This document shows positions 2,751 through 42,222 of a stretch of 64,000 nt of DNA, piece after piece (position 1 is the first letter of the stretch; every line of letters begins with the position of its first letter). The stretch covers positions 1,498 to 65,497 of the forward strand of contig CAZUJL010000022.1 of the NCBI GenBank assembly GCA_964620045.1, written 5' to 3'. Position numbers and translations under genes: made by a program. This DNA comes from an uncultured Nitrospirales bacterium. GTDB lineage: Bacteria; Hydrogenedentota; Hydrogenedentia; Hydrogenedentales; GCA-2746185. The notes under the pieces are model-generated. The model saw only the letters and a program-made list of their open reading frames with translations. It was not told the origin of the DNA and did no database searches.

Positions 2751-3764
2751 TCAGTTTCCGTTGGCTGCGCCTTCGGCTGGCTTCGCTTCGGTGGTCGCGG
2801 CCGGCTTGGCGACGAAGCCTTCGACTTCGAAAGGCGCGCTCCACTGCGTCTCGCCCCACACGAGGCGCACGATGCCGCCGTTGGCGGTTTGCTCCAGCTC
2901 AACCTTGAAGGTTTCCGCCGGTTCGGCAGGCTTGCCGGTTTCAAGCGCGACCTCGGCGGCGTCGGCTTCGGGGTTGTGCATCGTGCCCCACACGTCCGAC
3001 TCGCTATTGAAGATCAGGTTCCAGCCGGTGGCGGTCTTGCGCATCCAGAGGCTGTACACGCCGGGGTAGTCCGGCGCGACGTTTTCCTTCTTCACGACGC
3101 CCTGCGCGAACTTCATGTCCACGTCGGTCATCAGCTTCGTCGCGCGGCCGCCGACGAATTCGAACACTTCGCCTTCCTTCACTTCGCTCAGGCGCTTATA
3201 GTCTTCGTCGGCCGTCGCGAGCGGATGAAAGTTGACGCTTACTTTGTCGTCGCCGAAGCGCAGGCGTGCGGAGTTGGCGGCCATGCGACGATTGCGGCTG
3301 CGCGTCTCGCGGATTTCCGCGTCTTCACCGGCGGCAACCACGGCCGTGAACGGCGCGCTGAACAGGCCGCTGTCTTCGGCGAAGGTGCCTTCGAGGCCTT
3401 CGGCCGACGGCGTAGCCGTCACCGTGACCTGAAATTCCTGCTGCCCGAACTTCAGCGGATACTTGAGCACCATGTTGCCGCGCTCGTCGATCGAGACGTC
3501 TTCGATGGCCGTCGGCTCGGGCAACTGCGCCGAATCGATCGTGGCGCCGACTTTGCCTTCGAGATCGACGACAATCATGTTGAAATTCATCTGACGTCCC
3601 ATCATGTCGATGGTGACCGCCCAGTTACTGAGGAAATCCCGGGCTTCCGACGAATCGAGCTTCGTCGGCACCGGATCTTCGGCGACCACGGCGGGCGAAA
3701 CCGCCGCCATCATCGCCATCGCGCACACTGCCACCCATTGCCACCCTTGAAATCCCGCGCGCAT
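2751..3764 (-). CDS. secreted protein with C-terminal DUF2911-like domain (paralogue of 27568..28263)
   Basis: 337 aa, N-terminal signal peptide; C-terminal about 110 aa (ENVAPDYPGVYSLWMRKTATGWNLIFNSESDVWGTM...WGETQWSAPFEV) clearly homologous to the 27568..28263 product (ENVAKGYAGVYSLWIKKTADGWAFVFNQKPDVWGTM...WGAHQWSAKFAI); family name from memory, unverified. Confidence 0.5.
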   Translation of the reverse strand: MRAGFQGWQWVAVCAMAMMAAVSPAVVAEDPVPTKLDSSEARDFLSNWAVTIDMMGRQMNFNMIVVDLEGKVGATIDSAQLPEPTAIEDVSIDERGNMVLKYPLKFGQQEFQVTVTATPSAEGLEGTFAEDSGLFSAPFTAVVAAGEDAEIRETRSRNRRMAANSARLRFGDDKVSVNFHPLATADEDYKRLSEVKEGEVFEFVGGRATKLMTDVDMKFAQGVVKKENVAPDYPGVYSLWMRKTATGWNLIFNSESDVWGTMHNPEADAAEVALETGKPAEPAETFKVELEQTANGGIVRLVWGETQWSAPFEVEGFVAKPAATTEAKPAEGAANGN

Positions 3765-3917
3765 GCTCAGACACCCTCTTTGCGTTCGCCGCTGCGGGCG
3801 AACCCAGTCTGCAAGCCAAGGCCCGGCGCAGCGCCGGGCACGTACCCTTAAAGATTATCGGGAGGGACCCGGTTTATGGCCGAATCCCTCCCCGGAACGC
3901 AACTATACGTCACCGGT

Positions 3918-5171
3918 TCAGTCGCCGGGGAACTGCACATCCTTCTTCGGCGCGACGGTCATCCAGGCAAGGTCCATTTCGTCGGTGGTCGGACCGCCGA
4001 AACGAATCGCTTCGCTGGAGTCGAAGCCCGCGGCCGCGCCGCGTTCGTCGGAGTTGTCGTACCAGAATTCCATTTCGACGCGCGTACCGGCCGGCAGAAT
4101 CTTGTGCTCGGCGTAGTCGTAGCCCGTCTGCCAGTTAAAGTCCCACGCCGGAACGTGCAGAAGCTGTTCCGAGGTGCCATCCGGATAGAACGCGGTGTAC
4201 TTCGCTTCGGTACCGCGCAGGTGCATGTGCGGCAGCATCGAGAGCACGATCGTGTCTTCGTCGAAGGTGTGCGACGCGCCAACTTTCCAGTGCTTCGCGT
4301 GCGGCGGAATTTCAAACGAGCCGTGGGCGACCGGGAAGATATTGACCGGGTGCGTGACTTTCGCGCCCTCGGGGTGGAACTGGAGACCGATCTGCGAGCT
4401 GTCCCACTTGCCCGTGCCCGGGCCGGCTTCCTTGTGATAGTGCATCGCGAAGGTGATCGCGGAGCCCTTCTTGAGCTCGATGCCGTAGCCTTCCGGCCAC
4501 TGCGACTGGTCCGCGCCCGGCGCGTTGCCGCCCAGCATGCCGCGGCTGGTTTCGCCGGCATGTTCCTTGGAGTTCGCGTGACCGATGATATGGTGCACCA
4601 CGTCGCTACCCGGCTTGAATTCAATGCTGCGAATCCAGCGATCGTTCGGAAGCTGCTCTTCGGTGAGCTGCGTGGTGATGTTTTCGTAAAGGTCCTGCAC
4701 CTCGTCCTTCACGAAGAAGGGCTTCGGGAAATCGACGACGAGGTCCGGCTGACCGAAGTTCCAACCCGTCTCCGAGAACTTAATCGGGGCGGGGGCATCC
4801 TGCGGATTGCCGCGCTTGGCACCCTGCTGGACCCAGTCGGTCAAGGTCTTGATCTGTTCGGCGGATAGCGTGCGCTCGTTGCTGAACACGCCGTGGTATT
4901 CCTCGGACGCGTCCCACGGCGGCATCACCTTTTCGTTCACCGCCTTCACCATTGCCTTTGCCCACGGACGAACTTCCTCGTAGGTCATCAGCGACATCGG
5001 CGCGACCATGCCCGAGAGATTGATGCCCGAGGGGCGGTGGCAGGTCTGACATTTTTCCTGCAGGATCGGCAGCACGTCCTTGGTGAACGTGATTTCCGCC
5101 TGCGCGGCGCCCGCGAACGATGCGCCGACCAGCGCAGCGCCCAGAGCGACTTTCTTCGTGAGGTAGTGCAT
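3918..5171 (-). CDS. secreted mono-haem cytochrome c fused to PHM/DBH-like type II copper monooxygenase domain (paralogue 1 of 4)
   Basis: Signal peptide from ATG at 5171 (GGGAGA RBS 6 nt upstream; ORF track extends to 5237); CQTCH haem motif plus MPPW; then VHH ... MHYHKE ... HMHLRGT ... TDEMDLAWM, matching the CuH (H,H,H) and CuM (HxH,M) ligand order and spacing of peptidylglycine alpha-hydroxylating monooxygenase; FNWQ motif shared by all four paralogues. Confidence 0.6.
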   Translation of the reverse strand: MHYLTKKVALGAALVGASFAGAAQAEITFTKDVLPILQEKCQTCHRPSGINLSGMVAPMSLMTYEEVRPWAKAMVKAVNEKVMPPWDASEEYHGVFSNERTLSAEQIKTLTDWVQQGAKRGNPQDAPAPIKFSETGWNFGQPDLVVDFPKPFFVKDEVQDLYENITTQLTEEQLPNDRWIRSIEFKPGSDVVHHIIGHANSKEHAGETSRGMLGGNAPGADQSQWPEGYGIELKKGSAITFAMHYHKEAGPGTGKWDSSQIGLQFHPEGAKVTHPVNIFPVAHGSFEIPPHAKHWKVGASHTFDEDTIVLSMLPHMHLRGTEAKYTAFYPDGTSEQLLHVPAWDFNWQTGYDYAEHKILPAGTRVEMEFWYDNSDERGAAAGFDSSEAIRFGGPTTDEMDLAWMTVAPKKDVQFPGD

Positions 5172-23839: not shown

Positions 23840-23902
23840 CTTACTTTCTTTTCGACTTACTTTCTTTTCGAGAAAAGGAAGTAAGCAAAGAAAAGCCGTT
23901 GT

Positions 23903-23935
23903 GGGTGGCGCGAATGCGCCACCCATTTAATTTTG
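23903..23935 (+). terminator. intrinsic terminator after the ThDP enzyme gene
   Basis: Stem gggtggcgc / gcgccaccc with loop gaat, followed by atttaattttg; preceded at 23839-23893 by a 15-nt tandem direct repeat (cttactttcttttcg x2) that can also pair with the downstream gaaaaggaagtaag. Confidence 0.5.
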
Positions 23936-23962
23936 TGATGGGGATTTGCGAGTACGATTCTT

Positions 23963-24469
23963 ATGGCTGCGAAGACAAAGCGGACAGCAAAAACTAAACC
24001 TGCGAAAGATTATGTGGGCGTGGTGCGGGAGTTGTTGGCGCCGCTTGCGCAGCGCGGGGTCATCCGCAGTCTGGATGAGCGCACTGTTCGCGGGAAGACT
24101 GAGTTCCGGTTCATGTGGCTGCTGGATCGGCGATTCACGATGGTGTTCGATCCGGAGAACGGGAAAATCACGTTGAAGGATTTGTTGCCGAACGTTTCGG
24201 TGAAGTCGGATGTGGCGGAGGCCGTGCGCGGATGGGTCGCGGGTCGCGCCGAGAAGTCGCTGCCTCCCCACCGCCGTCTCGATCCCGCCAAAATTACCGC
24301 GCAGGTGTCCGTGCGCGGCGACATGCTGAGCATCGCGTTCGACGTGAAACGCAACCAGTACGCCTACGCCGTGCCCAAGGTGCTGAACTTCTGTAACGAA
24401 CTTTTTGGGCACCTCAGCATGTACCAGGTCCAATATATGTGGGCGCACATGGGTTTGCCGGAAGAGTAG
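23963..24469 (+). CDS. hypothetical protein
   Basis: 168 aa, Lys-rich N-terminus, no recognisable motif. Confidence 0.3.
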   Translation: MAAKTKRTAKTKPAKDYVGVVRELLAPLAQRGVIRSLDERTVRGKTEFRFMWLLDRRFTMVFDPENGKITLKDLLPNVSVKSDVAEAVRGWVAGRAEKSLPPHRRLDPAKITAQVSVRGDMLSIAFDVKRNQYAYAVPKVLNFCNELFGHLSMYQVQYMWAHMGLPEE

Positions 24470-24487
24470 TGAGCGGCGGGCGAGTCA

Positions 24488-24575
24488 GCCGTCCCTACGG
24501 GACTGATTGGGTGATGCGGGCATGGACCCCGGCGTTGAAACGCCGGGCTACTATCATCTGCCCCTCCGGGGCAAT
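24488..24575. repeat. structured intergenic repeat element, copy A (three hairpins)
   Basis: Shares cgtccctacgggact (hairpin gtccc-tac-gggac) and a terminal gcccctc(c/t)ggggc hairpin with a second copy at 41470-41558, at nearly identical spacing (69 vs 71 nt); the central hairpin differs in sequence but not in structure (ccccggcg-ttgaaa-cgccgggc here). Confidence 0.5.
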
Positions 24576-24808
24576 AAGCCCTGTGTATTTGCCAAGCCTC
24601 GGAAACGCCCTATTCACAAATGCTAAATATGCCGATTTTAGACAACCAATACCCGTGAATGTATTTCGTGGCTTTTCGCAATTTGCGGACTATGGCTCCC
24701 GTGCTATTATCGCCGGGTTAGAGGTTTATGTAGCTGCGGGAGCTCTGCGCGGAGCCGTATCGTTTTACGACGTAACGGTTTGTCACGCGCATTTCGGAGG
24801 GCGGGCAC

Positions 24809-38388: not shown

Positions 38389-39366
38389 ATGTCTTCCCGT
38401 TCTGCATCCGGCCGTCGTGGCGGCTTCACTCTCATCGAGTTGCTGGTTGTGATCGCGATCATCGGCATCTTGGCCTCGATTCTGTTGCCGGCGCTGGCGC
38501 GGGCCCGCGAGGCGGCGCGCCGCGCGAGCTGCGCGAACAATCTGAAGCAGATCGGGTTGTCGCTGAAGATGTACGCGAGCGAGACGCGCGGCGAGCGCTT
38601 CCCGCGGCTGCAGGGTACGAATTGCGAGCCGGAGATTCTGCCGTCGTACAACTGGATGTTCGATGTGCAGACGGTGTACCCGGAGTATTTGCCGGATCTG
38701 AACGTGATGGTGTGCCCGAGCGCGCTGGGCGGCGCGGATGCCGTTGCGCGGTGGGACAAGGGCGAGAACTACAATCCGAATTGGGAAGAAGCGTCGAACC
38801 CCGTGCTGGGCGTCTCCAATGACGGCAAGGTGACCGGGTGCGAAGTGCTGGCGGAGCCGTATTTCTACTACGGGTGGACGCTGTACCGCAGCCAGTTCCA
38901 GACCGAAGAGGACGTCGAGATCCTTGAGGAAGCGCTGCACTTTGAGTTTGAAGAAGAAGTGGAAGACGAAGCGATGATCACGAACGACATCGACGAGTTG
39001 AAGGAATTCCTCGACGAAGACATGCACCTCGAAACCTCGGAGGGCGTGATTGAACCGATCGACGGGAAGGACCATCTGCTGCGCTTGCGCGAAGGCATTG
39101 AGCGCATCTTCATTACCGACATCAACAACCCGGGCGCGTCGGCGCAGGCGGCCTCGGATATTGTGGTGATGCACGACTCGATCGAAGAAAACCCCAACGA
39201 CTTTAACCATGTGCCGGGCGGCGTGAATGTGCTGTACCTTGACGGCCACGTGAACTTTGAGAAGTGGGTGCCGAACGGCGCCGGCAACTACGGCGCGCCG
39301 TTCCCCGTGAATGCGGCGGCGCTGGAGCTGCACGAAATCGGCGAAGGCGAAGAAGAGGAAGAATAA
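38389..39366 (+). CDS. prepilin-type N-terminal cleavage/methylation domain protein (pilin-like with H-x-DGH C-terminus)
   Basis: [25 protein letters not shown] prepilin signal; C-terminal [16 protein letters not shown]; acidic Glu-rich tail. Confidence 0.7.
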
Positions 39367-39720: not shown

Positions 39721-39840
39721 CTCCATCCCGTTCCAAAACCGCTGACGCCCGGTGTGTGTGCACACACGGGCCGGCTGGCCGTAACTCCGGCGCATTGCGT
39801 CGCCGCGCGGCCCAGCCTGGACTTCAACAGGAGCCATACC

Positions 39841-40809
39841 ATGAACACAAGACGCCCGAGCCGTGGGTTTACGTTAATTGAATTGCTGGTGGTCATCGCG
39901 ATCATCGGGATACTTGCCGCTATTCTTTTGCCGGCGCTGGCGCGGGCACGCGAGGCGGCGCGCCGCGCGAGTTGCGCGAACAACCTGAAGCAGATCGGAT
40001 TGTCCCTGAAGATGTATGCGAGTGAGACACAGGGCGAGCGCTTTCCGCATATCAAGACGACCAATTGCTTTCCGGAAATCCACGAGACGTATGTGTGGAT
40101 GTTCGATGTGCAAGCGATGTACCCCGAGTATCTGCCGGACCTGAACGCGCTGGTGTGCCCCAGTTCGTTTGGCGGCGCGGATGCGGTCGCGCGGTGGGAC
40201 GAGGGCGATCAGGAAAGCCCCGAGTGGGAGGAAGTGAACAATCCGCCGCTGGGTGTGTCGCACGACGGCATTGTGACCGGGTGCGAGGTGGTCGACCATC
40301 CGTATTACTACTACGGCTGGGCGTTCCATCGGGATATGTTCAAGAGCACGACGGACTTTACGACGCTGGAAGATGTGCTGGTGTTTGAGTTCAACGAGGA
40401 GTACAAGCCGGCGTTCGACGTGGACAATTACGAGGCCGTGCGGCAGTTTGTCGACAGCGATCTGGAACTGGAAACGGCGCCGGATACCTTCGGAGAGATT
40501 GATGGTCGCGACTACATCGCGCGGTTGCGCGAAGGCATTGAGCGCATCTTTATCACGGACATCAATAATCCAGGGGCATCGGCACAGGCGCAGTCGAATA
40601 TTGTGGTAATGCACGATGCGATTTCGCCGGAGCCGGAGCATTTCAACCATGTGCCCGGCGGCACGAATGTGTTGTACCTAGATGGGCACGTGGATTTTAC
40701 GAAATGGATTCCCTCGCCGGAGAGCCTGGGCGGGCCGTTCCCGGTGAACGGGGCGGGGTTGATCCTGCACGAAGTGCCGGAGGAACTGGCGGGCACGCAC
40801 ACGCATTAA
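39841..40809 (+). CDS. prepilin-type pilin-like protein (tandem paralogue of 38389..39366)
   Basis: ATG 39841 ([62 protein letters not shown], near-identical to the upstream paralogue); C-terminal [16 protein letters not shown]. Confidence 0.7.
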
Positions 40810-40860: not shown

Positions 40861-41445
40861 GTGTGCGATGTGCTATCGTACTTGGACTGCGGGACTCATC
40901 TTGTGAGCGAAACCCTACCCAACGAGAACGTGCGGCCGATCGTCATTCGTATTCTGGCGATCAGCGCGGCGGCGTTTCTGTTTTTGCTGTGGTTGCTGTA
41001 TTTCAAGGGGCCGTCGGACTCGAGCGGGCATAGTTTGTCGTTCTTGCCGGCGGTGAATGCGACGCTGAACGGGCTTGCGGCGGCGTGCATCACGGCGGGC
41101 GTGATCGCGATCAAGAGCGGGCGCAAGCGGCTGCACATGACGCTGATGATCACGGCGGTGTCGCTGTCGATCGTGTTTCTGGTCAGCTACATCACGTACC
41201 ACAATCTGCACGGCGACACGAAGTTTGTGACGCACGGCACGATTCGCACCGTGTACTTCTTCATCCTGATTTCGCATATAGCGTGCACGGTGTTTGCGTT
41301 ACCGTTGATCATGAGCGCGGTGTTCTTCGCGATCACGAAACGGTTTGAGCTGCACAAGCGCGTGGTGAAGTACACCGTGCCGTTGTGGCTGTACGTCTCG
41401 ATTACGGGCGTGGCGATTTACTTCCTGCTGAAGGCGAATTCCTGA
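40861..41445 (+). CDS. DUF420-like (CtaM-like) four-TM membrane protein
   Basis: LNATLNGLAAACITAGVIAIK ... SYITYHNLHG ... IRTVYFFILISHIACTVFALPL ... VPLWLYVSITGVAIY resembles the DUF420 family, which is linked to aa3-oxidase function in Bacillus; family identity from memory. Confidence 0.45.
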   Translation: MCDVLSYLDCGTHLVSETLPNENVRPIVIRILAISAAAFLFLLWLLYFKGPSDSSGHSLSFLPAVNATLNGLAAACITAGVIAIKSGRKRLHMTLMITAVSLSIVFLVSYITYHNLHGDTKFVTHGTIRTVYFFILISHIACTVFALPLIMSAVFFAITKRFELHKRVVKYTVPLWLYVSITGVAIYFLLKANS

Positions 41446-41469
41446 CGCCGCGTATCGACCGCGTTTCTG

Positions 41470-41558
41470 TCGTCCCTACGGGACTTGATGCCGAGGTCGC
41501 TATCGGCATACCCACCGCTGAAGCGGTGGGCTAAATTCTGTCGCCCCTCTGGGGCTCA
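41470..41558. repeat. structured intergenic repeat element, copy B (three hairpins)
   Basis: cgtccctacgggact ... cccaccgc-tgaa-gcggtggg ... gcccctctggggc; same architecture and spacing as copy A at 24488-24575; followed at 41581-41619 by a 16-nt direct repeat containing the 12-bp palindrome gcaatgcattgc. Confidence 0.5.
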
Positions 41559-41649
41559 CCGTCGGTGCAATTTCTCGAGTTGCAATGCATTGCGTTTAGA
41601 GTAGCAATGCGTTGCGTTTCGAAGAATATGTAGTATCGGTTTGCGAGAC

Positions 41650-42222
41650 TTAGCCTTTTAACTTCTGAATCATCTCGGCGACGCGTTTGCCGATGGCTTC
41701 CACGCTGGCCTGCTGCTGGGCATCCTTGAGTTTGGGGCCGTCGAAGGCTTCGTGCGCCTTCATGACGGCGACCTGATCCGGCAGCACGAGCGTCTGGATA
41801 TTTCCCAGGATCGAGCGTACGGTCACGAGGCCGCGCAGGCCGCCGAGCGCGCCGGGCGACGCGCTCATGAGTCCGGCTACTTTGCCGACGTAGGCCTCCA
41901 ACGGCTTCTCGGCCCCTTCGCGGCGCGAGGCCCAGTCGATCGCGTTTTTCAGGAGCGGCGTGATTGAACTGTTGTACTCCGGCGCGGAGATCAGGAAGCC
42001 GTCGTGCGACTTCATGAGTTCCTTAAAGGTCTTCGCATTCGGCGGGAGGCCACTGCGTGCTTCGTCGTCTTCGTTGTACAGCGGCAAGGGTAAGGCATTC
42101 CAATCGACGAGCGTTACCGTGGCGCCGGCGTTGCGCGCGCCGTCGGCGGCGATTTTCACAAGGCGCGTGTTAAACGAATCGAGCCGGGCGCTGCCGGAGA
42201 ACGCGAGAATTTTCGGGGTCAT
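41650..42222 (-). CDS. NADPH-dependent FMN reductase-family flavoprotein
   Basis: 190 aa; MTPKILAFSGSARLDSFNTRL ... FLISAPEYNSSITPLLKNAIDW typical of NADPH-dependent FMN reductases. Confidence 0.75.
   Translation of the reverse strand: MTPKILAFSGSARLDSFNTRLVKIAADGARNAGATVTLVDWNALPLPLYNEDDEARSGLPPNAKTFKELMKSHDGFLISAPEYNSSITPLLKNAIDWASRREGAEKPLEAYVGKVAGLMSASPGALGGLRGLVTVRSILGNIQTLVLPDQVAVMKAHEAFDGPKLKDAQQQASVEAIGKRVAEMIQKLKG

Follow-up and report, generated by a model that had tools for sequence, protein, structure and literature searches.

Acido-Lenti-1 as a probable REP-like DNA repeat: two copies in a Hydrogenedentota contig and a Y1/HUH gene flanked by inverted copies

Window copies and the complete unit

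The stretch of DNA analysed here, referred to as the window, comprises 64,000 nucleotides of contig CAZUJL010000022.1 from an uncultured Nitrospirales bacterium (Hydrogenedentota in the GTDB lineage), and contains two copies of an intergenic element composed of three hairpins. Copy A (24484-24575, plus strand) begins 14 nt past the stop codon of an open reading frame (ORF) at 23963-24469 (plus strand), which encodes a 168-aa protein with no Pfam match. Copy B (41465-41558, plus strand) lies downstream of a DUF420 gene (40861-41445, plus strand; 180 aa in the public gene call) and is followed on its 3' side by a convergent gene encoding an NADPH-dependent FMN reductase (41650-42222, minus strand). 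The original prediction, made from the sequence of the window alone, had placed both copies just 3' of plus-strand genes, and this was accurate: each is in sense orientation, 14-19 nt after a stop codon. The data presented below make it probable, with good confidence, that the element is a DNA repeat comparable to the repetitive extragenic palindromic (REP) sequences and REPtrons of other bacteria, that its home is a pair of inverted copies flanking a Y1/HUH gene of the type known as TnpA-Y1 subclass 1.2, and that the window copies are solo insertions.

The two copies share their outer hairpins and differ in the middle one. Specifically, hairpin 1 (24491-24503 in copy A and 41472-41484 in copy B, with stem arms at 24491-24495/24499-24503 and 41472-41476/41480-41484) lies within an exact 15-mer, CGTCCCTACGGGACT, found at 24490-24504 and 41471-41485. 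Hairpin 2 is formed by the arms CCCGGCGT/ACGCCGGG in copy A (24528-24547) and CCCACCGC/GCGGTGGG in copy B (41511-41530), followed in each case by CTA, and hairpin 3, the terminal one, reads GCCCCTC(C/T)GGGGC at 24560-24572 and 41543-41555. The 15-mer and terminal hairpins were thus re-found at the places originally noted, and re-measurement of the spacing of hairpins 1 and 3 returned the same, nearly identical values of 69 nt for copy A and 71 nt for copy B. Folding additionally places a 7-bp hairpin in the spacer of copy B (41488-41509, ATGCCGA...TCGGCAT) that is absent from copy A and from the family consensus.

When up to three mismatches were allowed, the 15-mer alone yielded two or more matches in 37 of 100 shuffles, which is chance level; searching the window by the mismatched 15-mer was consequently dropped as no better than chance, and covariance models were used instead. 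Hairpins 2 and 3 of both copies, together with the GGCUA linker, correspond to RF01687 (Rfam release 15), the Acido-Lenti-1 family, to which Rfam assigns the type "Gene; sRNA" (small RNA). Copy B matches at 41511-41556 with 56.7 bits (E = 4e-10) and copy A at 24528-24573 with 43.2 bits (E = 1.8e-6), and both exceed the gathering score of 37 bits from end to end of the model (positions 1-46). A full-length covariance model, designated R1 and built from 56 full units, recovers copy A with 78.9 bits (E = 1.6e-15) and copy B with 79.4 bits (E = 1.2e-15), as against about 15 bits for the opposite strand. These values bear out the claim that the likeness of the two copies goes beyond chance. No further copies, even degenerate ones, were found in the 64-kb window with R1 and its filters off, and a relaxed Rfam search of the window returned, beyond the two copies, a single sub-threshold match at chance level (Six3os1_5).

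The Acido-Lenti-1 motif was first described by Weinberg et al. (2010; PMC2864571), who judged from covariation that it was likely an RNA. In the RF01687 seed alignment, one Lentisphaera assembly (NZ_ABCK) by itself contributes dozens of copies, often arranged tandemly at intervals of 74, about 110-115 and about 195-200 nt; copies from NC_008009, NC_005027 and NC_009483 are included as well. These three accessions we take to be Koribacter versatilis, the planctomycete Rhodopirellula baltica and a Geobacter, respectively.

Hairpin 1 falls outside the 46-nt RF01687 model. A pattern tied to the hairpin 2 foot and to hairpin 3, and hence free of bias in the region upstream, was run against one genome per species, and among the loci listed a perfect 5-bp hairpin 1 was present 20-29 nt 5' of hairpin 2 in 70 of the 99 copies with a locatable hairpin 2. 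Hairpin 1 belongs to the same type as hairpin 3 (tCG-YCCCT-NC-GGGR-CT), the resemblance continuing 5' for another 8 nt or so. It covaries and is a general feature of the family, namely a second copy of the hairpin-3 module some 24 nt upstream. The unit therefore reads hairpin module, variable spacer of about 23 nt, 8-bp hairpin plus GGGCTA, 9 nt, and hairpin module again, such that the 46-nt RF01687 model is too short at its 5' side and the real unit spans about 90 nt and three hairpins.

Distribution, covariation and orthologous sites

The genome-wide search proposed with the original prediction returned at least 120 loci, rather than only the two window copies, in Planctomycetota, Acidobacteriota, Thermodesulfobacteriota/Deltaproteobacteria, Verrucomicrobia, Chloroflexia, Ignavibacteria, Binatus and others, a range extending far beyond Acidobacteria and Lentisphaerae. 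Counts of arrangement and orientation given here rest on the first 120 loci listed plus the window, in which R1 identifies 180 copies. They are arranged as 82 singlets, 35 head-to-head doublets whose 5' ends are mostly separated by 3-38 nt, two tail-to-tail doublets and several tandem groups. The periods of tandem arrays are 72, 107 and 129 nt, and the sharing of a hairpin module between neighbours in such arrays accounts for a period of 72-74 nt. The element resides mainly between genes, with 11 of 128 clusters located inside genes as called by a crude caller based on third-position GC content (GC3).

A second short repeat, CCCTTCGACT(T/G)CGCTCAGGGCAGGCTC, was observed at four of the loci (L015, ~3450-3490; L016, ~930-980; L089, ~4050-4100; L103, ~3790-3830), nested in the hairpin 1 or hairpin 2 loops of some copies, and different loop insertions are present in other copies (L005, L081). 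Insertions are apparently tolerated in the hairpin loops, or drawn to them.

Covariance-model building, likewise proposed at the outset, revealed covariation across the family. In the set of loci chosen by the element, hairpins 1 and 2 covary; one pair of hairpin 1 is C-G in 29 cases and U-A in 25, and another is C-G in 50 and U-A in 4. In a second set, chosen by the associated protein described below, hairpin 3 is not fixed by ascertainment, and there all three helices covary, with changes on both sides at 17 of 18 pairs and 97.7% of cells paired, compared with at most 52% in slid controls.

The original prediction had read the divergent middle hairpins of the window copies as a structure-preserving difference. 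At the level of the family this holds, as the covariation is real, but the difference between the window copies themselves is one between two recurrent sequence types. The 23-mer forming the middle hairpin of copy A recurs in L040 and L048 (Acidobacteriota metagenome-assembled genomes, MAGs) and in L158, L197 and L205, and L165, where a Y1 gene has the element on both sides, contains it two times; the corresponding 23-mer of copy B recurs in L023 and L079. Because these sequences recur in other organisms, the window copies represent two sub-families within one genome, comparable to the REP types of E. coli, and not one sequence altered by compensatory changes in place.

Comparison with relatives indicates how the window copies came to lie where they do. 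Two public sequencing runs contain contigs whose sequence is the same as that of the window. Alignment with relatives delimits a 208-nt segment (41443-41650) present in the window lineage only, which separates the stop codons of two convergent genes (DUF420 and FMN reductase) and consists of copy B with 22 nt to its left and 92 nt to its right. At the same site in L210, L208/L209 and L211, in which the FMN reductase is 95, 88 and 86% identical, the two stop codons overlap (AATTCC-TAG-CC), and a fourth relative (FMN reductase 85% identical) has a 10-nt spacer by gene map. No target duplication past one ambiguous T was found at the copy B insertion. Given that the empty sites are without any hairpin, hairpin 1 must have come with the insertion. 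For the same reason a scheme in which a 74-nt unit inserts behind a hairpin 1 already present in the target, put forward as an explanation for arrays with shared hairpins, was ruled out at copy B.

The 208-nt insert also holds the 16-nt direct repeats described originally, GCAATGC(A/G)TTGCGTTT, at 41582-41597 and 41604-41619 (plus strand). They are the only two matches in the window, 22 nt apart; the first contains the perfect 12-bp palindrome, and both lie outside the R1 match and the family consensus. Judged by sequence, the pair might be likened to a dimer-binding site, yet it sits between two convergent stop codons.

At the site of copy A, comparison with L125 and L126 places the window-specific part of the spacer at roughly 24470-24690. 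Both relatives have the same gene order and a 168-aa protein that is 68-73% identical, their spacers measure 171-201 nt as against 339 nt in the window, and the orthologous spacers contain no R1 match. The flanks of copy A cannot be aligned with those of L125 and L126; L124 and L127 were unsuitable for comparison, their gene order being different. The window copies are, then, two solo insertions after stop codons, one of which parted genes whose stops overlap in relatives.

A Y1/HUH gene between inverted copies

Inspection of the sequence between neighbouring copies of the element revealed, in L035, a 150-aa ORF located exactly between a (-) and a (+) copy, with a homologue in L109. The L035 and L109 proteins match Pfam Y1_Tnp (PF01797; E = 2.8e-25 and 9.3e-21). 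With the NCBIfam model for IS200/IS605 transposases (transpos_IS200, NF033573; cut-off 55), scores of 70.4, 61.8 and 55.1 bits were obtained, L035 and L109 passing, while the REP_Tyr_transpos model (NF047646; cut-off 80) was not reached, with 24.9 bits for L035, a further score of 21.5 bits and no match for L109. Additional Y1 genes identified by tblastn are intact in L082, frameshifted or fragmentary in L112 and L101, and cut by the contig end in L099, and all of them adjoin elements. Y1 genes thus lie between inverted copies in L035, L082, L109 and L112 and beside copies in L099 and L101.

Three of these loci display features of their own. In L112 (4831-5290) and L101 (1784-2070) the Y1 genes are decayed and the flanking elements intact, a pattern also reported for REPtrons. 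L109 contains two Y1 genes (2-115 and 344-967), identical over the 38 aa visible, each of which has a (-) element at the same side; the spacing is about 925 nt, and the whole is a tandem duplication of gene plus element.

The proteins are 147-150 aa long and share the motifs DHVH, WQ and YI.NQE.HH (Y---Q--HH) along with a conserved C-terminal tail. L035 carries DHVH, WQ and YIGNQEEHH, L082 carries DHVH, WQ and YIARQEEHH, L099 carries WQ and YIENQEKHH, and L109 has the variant NHVY. By length and motifs the associated protein fits TnpA-Y1 "subclass 1.2", a candidate assignment that follows the published description of this group (Quentin et al., 2018; PMC6006769), namely a median of 148 aa, DH[IV]H, WQ, YIKNQKEHH and a C-terminal tail that is conserved. 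In that survey the subclass was found to be low-copy, not insertion sequence (IS)-like and without associated REPs or a known role, whereas the relatives described here, which occur in Acidobacteriota, Planctomycetota and other MAGs, are flanked by Acido-Lenti-1 in 74 of 80 loci.

The latter figure derives from a reverse test. Since the first loci had been selected by the element, metagenome contigs of the Joint Genome Institute (JGI) were then searched with the protein alone, and 80 loci at 43-66% identity were recovered, 74 of which contain the element (E <= 2e-4). Of 76 evaluable loci, 61 have a (-) copy within 150 nt 5' of the Y1 gene; within 150 nt on the 3' side a (+) copy is present in 51 of 72, and both flanks are occupied in 42 of 68; the median gaps, from 5' copy to start codon and from stop codon to 3' copy, are about 8 nt. 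The RF01687 model, applied to the flanks, gave 42 matches above its gathering score in 20 loci. Copies are 74% identical within a locus versus 55% between loci, and in L138 the inverted homology extends about 11 nt past hairpin 3.

Known systems, rival explanations and significance

REP and REPIN sequences together with REP-associated tyrosine transposase (RAYT, or TnpA-REP) genes reportedly form units known as REPtrons, and the idea is said to go back to Nunvar in 2010, Bertels and Rainey in 2011 and Ton-Hoang in 2012. Acido-Lenti-1 resembles these systems in consisting of extragenic palindromic repeats, with doublets mostly head-to-head and with clusters or arrays, in having a Y1/HUH gene between inverted copies, in that flanking copies are cognate to their locus, and in being found preferentially at gene 3' ends (Di Nocera et al., 2013; Quentin et al., 2018; PMC3733652, PMC6006769). 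Several differences separate the two. RAYT proteins (class 2) carry a Y..NP motif, whereas the protein here has Y---Q--HH and scores far below the cut-off of NF047646; REPs have GT[AG]G 5' of the hairpin foot, where the Acido-Lenti-1 consensus is t-C-G (uuCuguCG) with no GTAG; and the REP unit is a single palindrome of 20-40 nt rather than a three-hairpin composite of about 90 nt.

A further likeness is to TIRtrons, in which a RAYT-like gene (TIRYT) lies between longer inverted repeats of dispersed families; TIRtron repeats are moderately abundant, with examples in Acidobacteria (K. versatilis) (Di Nocera et al., 2013; PMC3733652). The associated gene was ruled out as an acidobacterial TIRYT because those proteins carry Y..NP (e.g., aba 1552, "Y IAK NPV"; PMC3733652) and therefore belong to another Y1 branch; it is by protein motif that the two are set apart. 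The CGTC-tagged REPs of the same study (Di Nocera et al., 2013; PMC3733652) have an unpaired CGTC, an 8-9-bp stem starting with A/T, a 4-5-nt loop and a CCA-like tail, and membership in this group was likewise ruled out, as the GTC of the hairpin 1 CGTC is paired, the stem is 5 bp long and G/C-rich, the loop has 3 nt and the tail is CT. With IS200/IS605 elements and their derivatives that lack a gene, the palindrome-associated transposable elements (PATEs), Acido-Lenti-1 has in common the enzyme family and, in the singlet, same-strand hairpins at both ends, as at the left and right ends of IS608. It differs from them in that the gene lies between two whole inverted elements, not between hairpin 1 and hairpin 3, and in that there is no tnpB.

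From Acido-Lenti-1 as represented in Rfam, which both window copies fit in hairpins 2 and 3 over the whole model, the unit described here departs by the addition of hairpin 1 and by evidence favouring a DNA repeat tied to a Y1 gene. No published link between Acido-Lenti-1 and transposases was found in the literature searched, later papers included; the motif itself is known, and the hairpin 1 extension, the REP-like behaviour and the gene partner appear to be new within that literature.

The original prediction offered a choice between a selected RNA structure and a REP/MITE-like repeat (MITEs being miniature inverted-repeat transposable elements). A gene for a trans-acting sRNA, each copy of which would be transcribed into a structured RNA of about 50-90 nt acting elsewhere, agrees with the Rfam type, with the covariation-based rating of Weinberg et al. 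(2010; PMC2864571), with the strong covariation of the hairpins and with the strand specificity of the sequence signal (79 versus 15 bits). Covariation, however, is equally expected of hairpins in single-stranded DNA, and when the element is folded as such both strands are equally good. Moreover, stems read on the Rfam strand contain 37 G·T pairs as against 81 A·C mismatches (all loci, two alignments), which is the opposite of the expectation for an RNA on that strand, and this is so even though the search model itself favours G·U. With A·C exceeding G·T by 2:1, the counts suggest that it is not the strand modelled by Rfam but its complement that is read in single-stranded form; the excess could mark the strand so read or reflect a strand-biased mutation pattern. 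At neither window copy was a sigma-70-like promoter found, nor an intrinsic terminator (hairpin plus T-run) at hairpin 3; the terminator scan gave one match that overlaps copy A (24567-24583), in which the partner of hairpin 3's 3' arm is sequence lying downstream and the tail is weak. With many copies per genome in inverted doublets and arrays, absence from the orthologous sites of close relatives, and a tight, oriented flanking of Y1 genes for which an sRNA would provide no rationale, an sRNA gene is, on the sequence evidence, highly improbable. A cis-acting element of 3' untranslated regions (3'-UTRs), whose co-transcribed hairpins would block 3' exonucleases or would pause or terminate transcription, accords better with the sense position of both window copies shortly after stop codons, with the preponderance of convergent (13) and tandem (34) over divergent (4) spacers among the loci listed, and with the established stabilisation of upstream mRNA by E. 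coli REPs (reviewed in PMC3733652). Yet within tandem spacers 20 singlets are antisense and 14 sense, that is, there is no bias towards the sense strand, and orthologous genes in relatives manage without the element. Nor does a U-tract follow hairpin 3, although a canonical terminator-like hairpin (GGGTGGCGC-GAAT-GCGCCACCC, then TTAATTTT) is seen at 23901-23936, after a gene for a thiamine pyrophosphate (TPP) enzyme, indicating that the organism uses hairpin-plus-T-run signals of a kind that the repeat lacks. The conserved unpaired motifs GGGCTA and tCG...CT would, in addition, go unexplained by a plain hairpin role. As the reason for the existence of the element a 3'-UTR function is unlikely; as a side effect of the repeat it is possible.

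A conventional, autonomous insertion sequence bounded by terminal inverted repeats (TIRs), of which the doublets would be internally deleted MITEs and the singlets broken halves, would account for the gene bracketed by inverted copies, the inverted homology reaching about 11 nt past hairpin 3 in L138, the resemblance of doublets to the gene-plus-flank unit minus its gene, the passing of the NCBIfam IS200/IS605 model, and the second identical gene fragment 230 nt off in L109. It sits poorly, though, with the ends of IS200/IS605 elements, whose Y1/HUH transposases are associated with same-strand hairpins at both ends and not with inverted repeats (PMC6006769), and with the low copy number of subclass 1.2 and the 36% identity between copies in one genome, which are un-IS-like (PMC6006769). 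Singlets, furthermore, are complete, one strand carrying both the hairpin-1 and the hairpin-3 module; a TIR-type transposon does not predict arrays with shared hairpins in tandem; and the frameshifted genes of L112 and L101 retain intact flanks; we regard this explanation as quite unlikely. A MITE does not fit, the terminal modules of the singlet being direct and not inverted and any duplication at copy B amounting to no more than one ambiguous T. Finally, a chance likeness of GC-rich, terminator-like hairpins, with which the chance-level recurrence of the mismatched 15-mer would agree, can be discarded in view of R1 E-values of about 1e-15 for both copies and hundreds of homologous copies elsewhere. 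Of the two possibilities first raised, then, the REP-like repeat is strongly favoured, on account of the wide distribution, the inverted doublets and arrays, the flanking of a Y1 gene and the empty orthologous sites, and the sequence evidence speaks against the selected RNA, given the lack of orientation bias, the excess of A·C over G·U, and the missing promoter and terminator.

The preferred interpretation of the element, as a REP/REPtron-like DNA repeat, draws on direct observations of family membership, unit architecture, covariation, doublets and arrays, oriented association with the Y1 gene, and presence or absence at orthologous sites. Under it, the dispersed singlets, head-to-head doublets and hairpin-sharing arrays are non-autonomous derivatives. 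Like TnpA of IS608 and TnpA-REP of E. coli, the associated Y1 protein would bind the hairpins in single-stranded DNA and would cut and rejoin near the hairpin feet, and this activity may serve to spread or rearrange copies of the element; effects on host genes, such as those of 3'-end hairpins on upstream mRNAs, would be secondary. The template of the lagging strand is preferred by both IS200/IS605 and REP systems.

Several observations weigh against this interpretation. The insertion at copy B measures 208 nt, of which the element accounts for 94 nt and the remaining 22 + 92 nt fall outside the family consensus, so that the mobile unit, or the event that moved it, was not simply the element. 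No Y1 gene was found by tblastn in the 64-kb window, the sense orientation of both window copies shortly after stop codons also fits a 3'-UTR role, and the orientation counts derive from the crude GC3-based gene caller. To our knowledge, neither transposition nor cleavage has been demonstrated for any subclass 1.2 protein.

Apart from the element, two features of the window deserve mention. The leader of the 440-aa gene downstream of copy A (24690-24808) is kept in L125 and L126, unlike the rest of the spacer, with conserved blocks TATGGCTCCCGTGCTATTAT...GGGTTAGAGGTT...GCTGCGGGAGC...TTTGTCAC.CGC and a possible GGCTCCCG/CGGGAGC pairing, and it possibly serves a gene pair without a Pfam match as promoter, operator or 5'-UTR structure. 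Upstream of copy B, the neighbouring genes at 38389-39366 and 39754-40809 combine an N-terminal methylation motif with DUF1559, a combination typical of Planctomycetota and relatives.

The result for the window itself is modest, while the re-interpretation of the family is of moderate interest. We lean, with less assurance than for the repeat-like nature of the element, towards the broader view that Acido-Lenti-1 is not an sRNA but the DNA partner, or REP equivalent, of subclass 1.2, and that the two constitute a new type of REPtron with a unit of about 90 nt in at least six phyla. If so, Rfam would have to assign the family a type other than sRNA and to extend the model at its 5' side, and genome annotations that place small-RNA genes at such sites (in Acidobacteriota, Planctomycetota, Verrucomicrobiota and related MAGs) would mislead. 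Likewise, a Y1/HUH subclass of unknown function would gain a concrete candidate DNA substrate, and the REP/RAYT idea, in which a domesticated single-strand transposase tends hairpin repeats, would reach another protein branch and a more complex unit, and would extend to phyla in which REP-like systems have barely been described.

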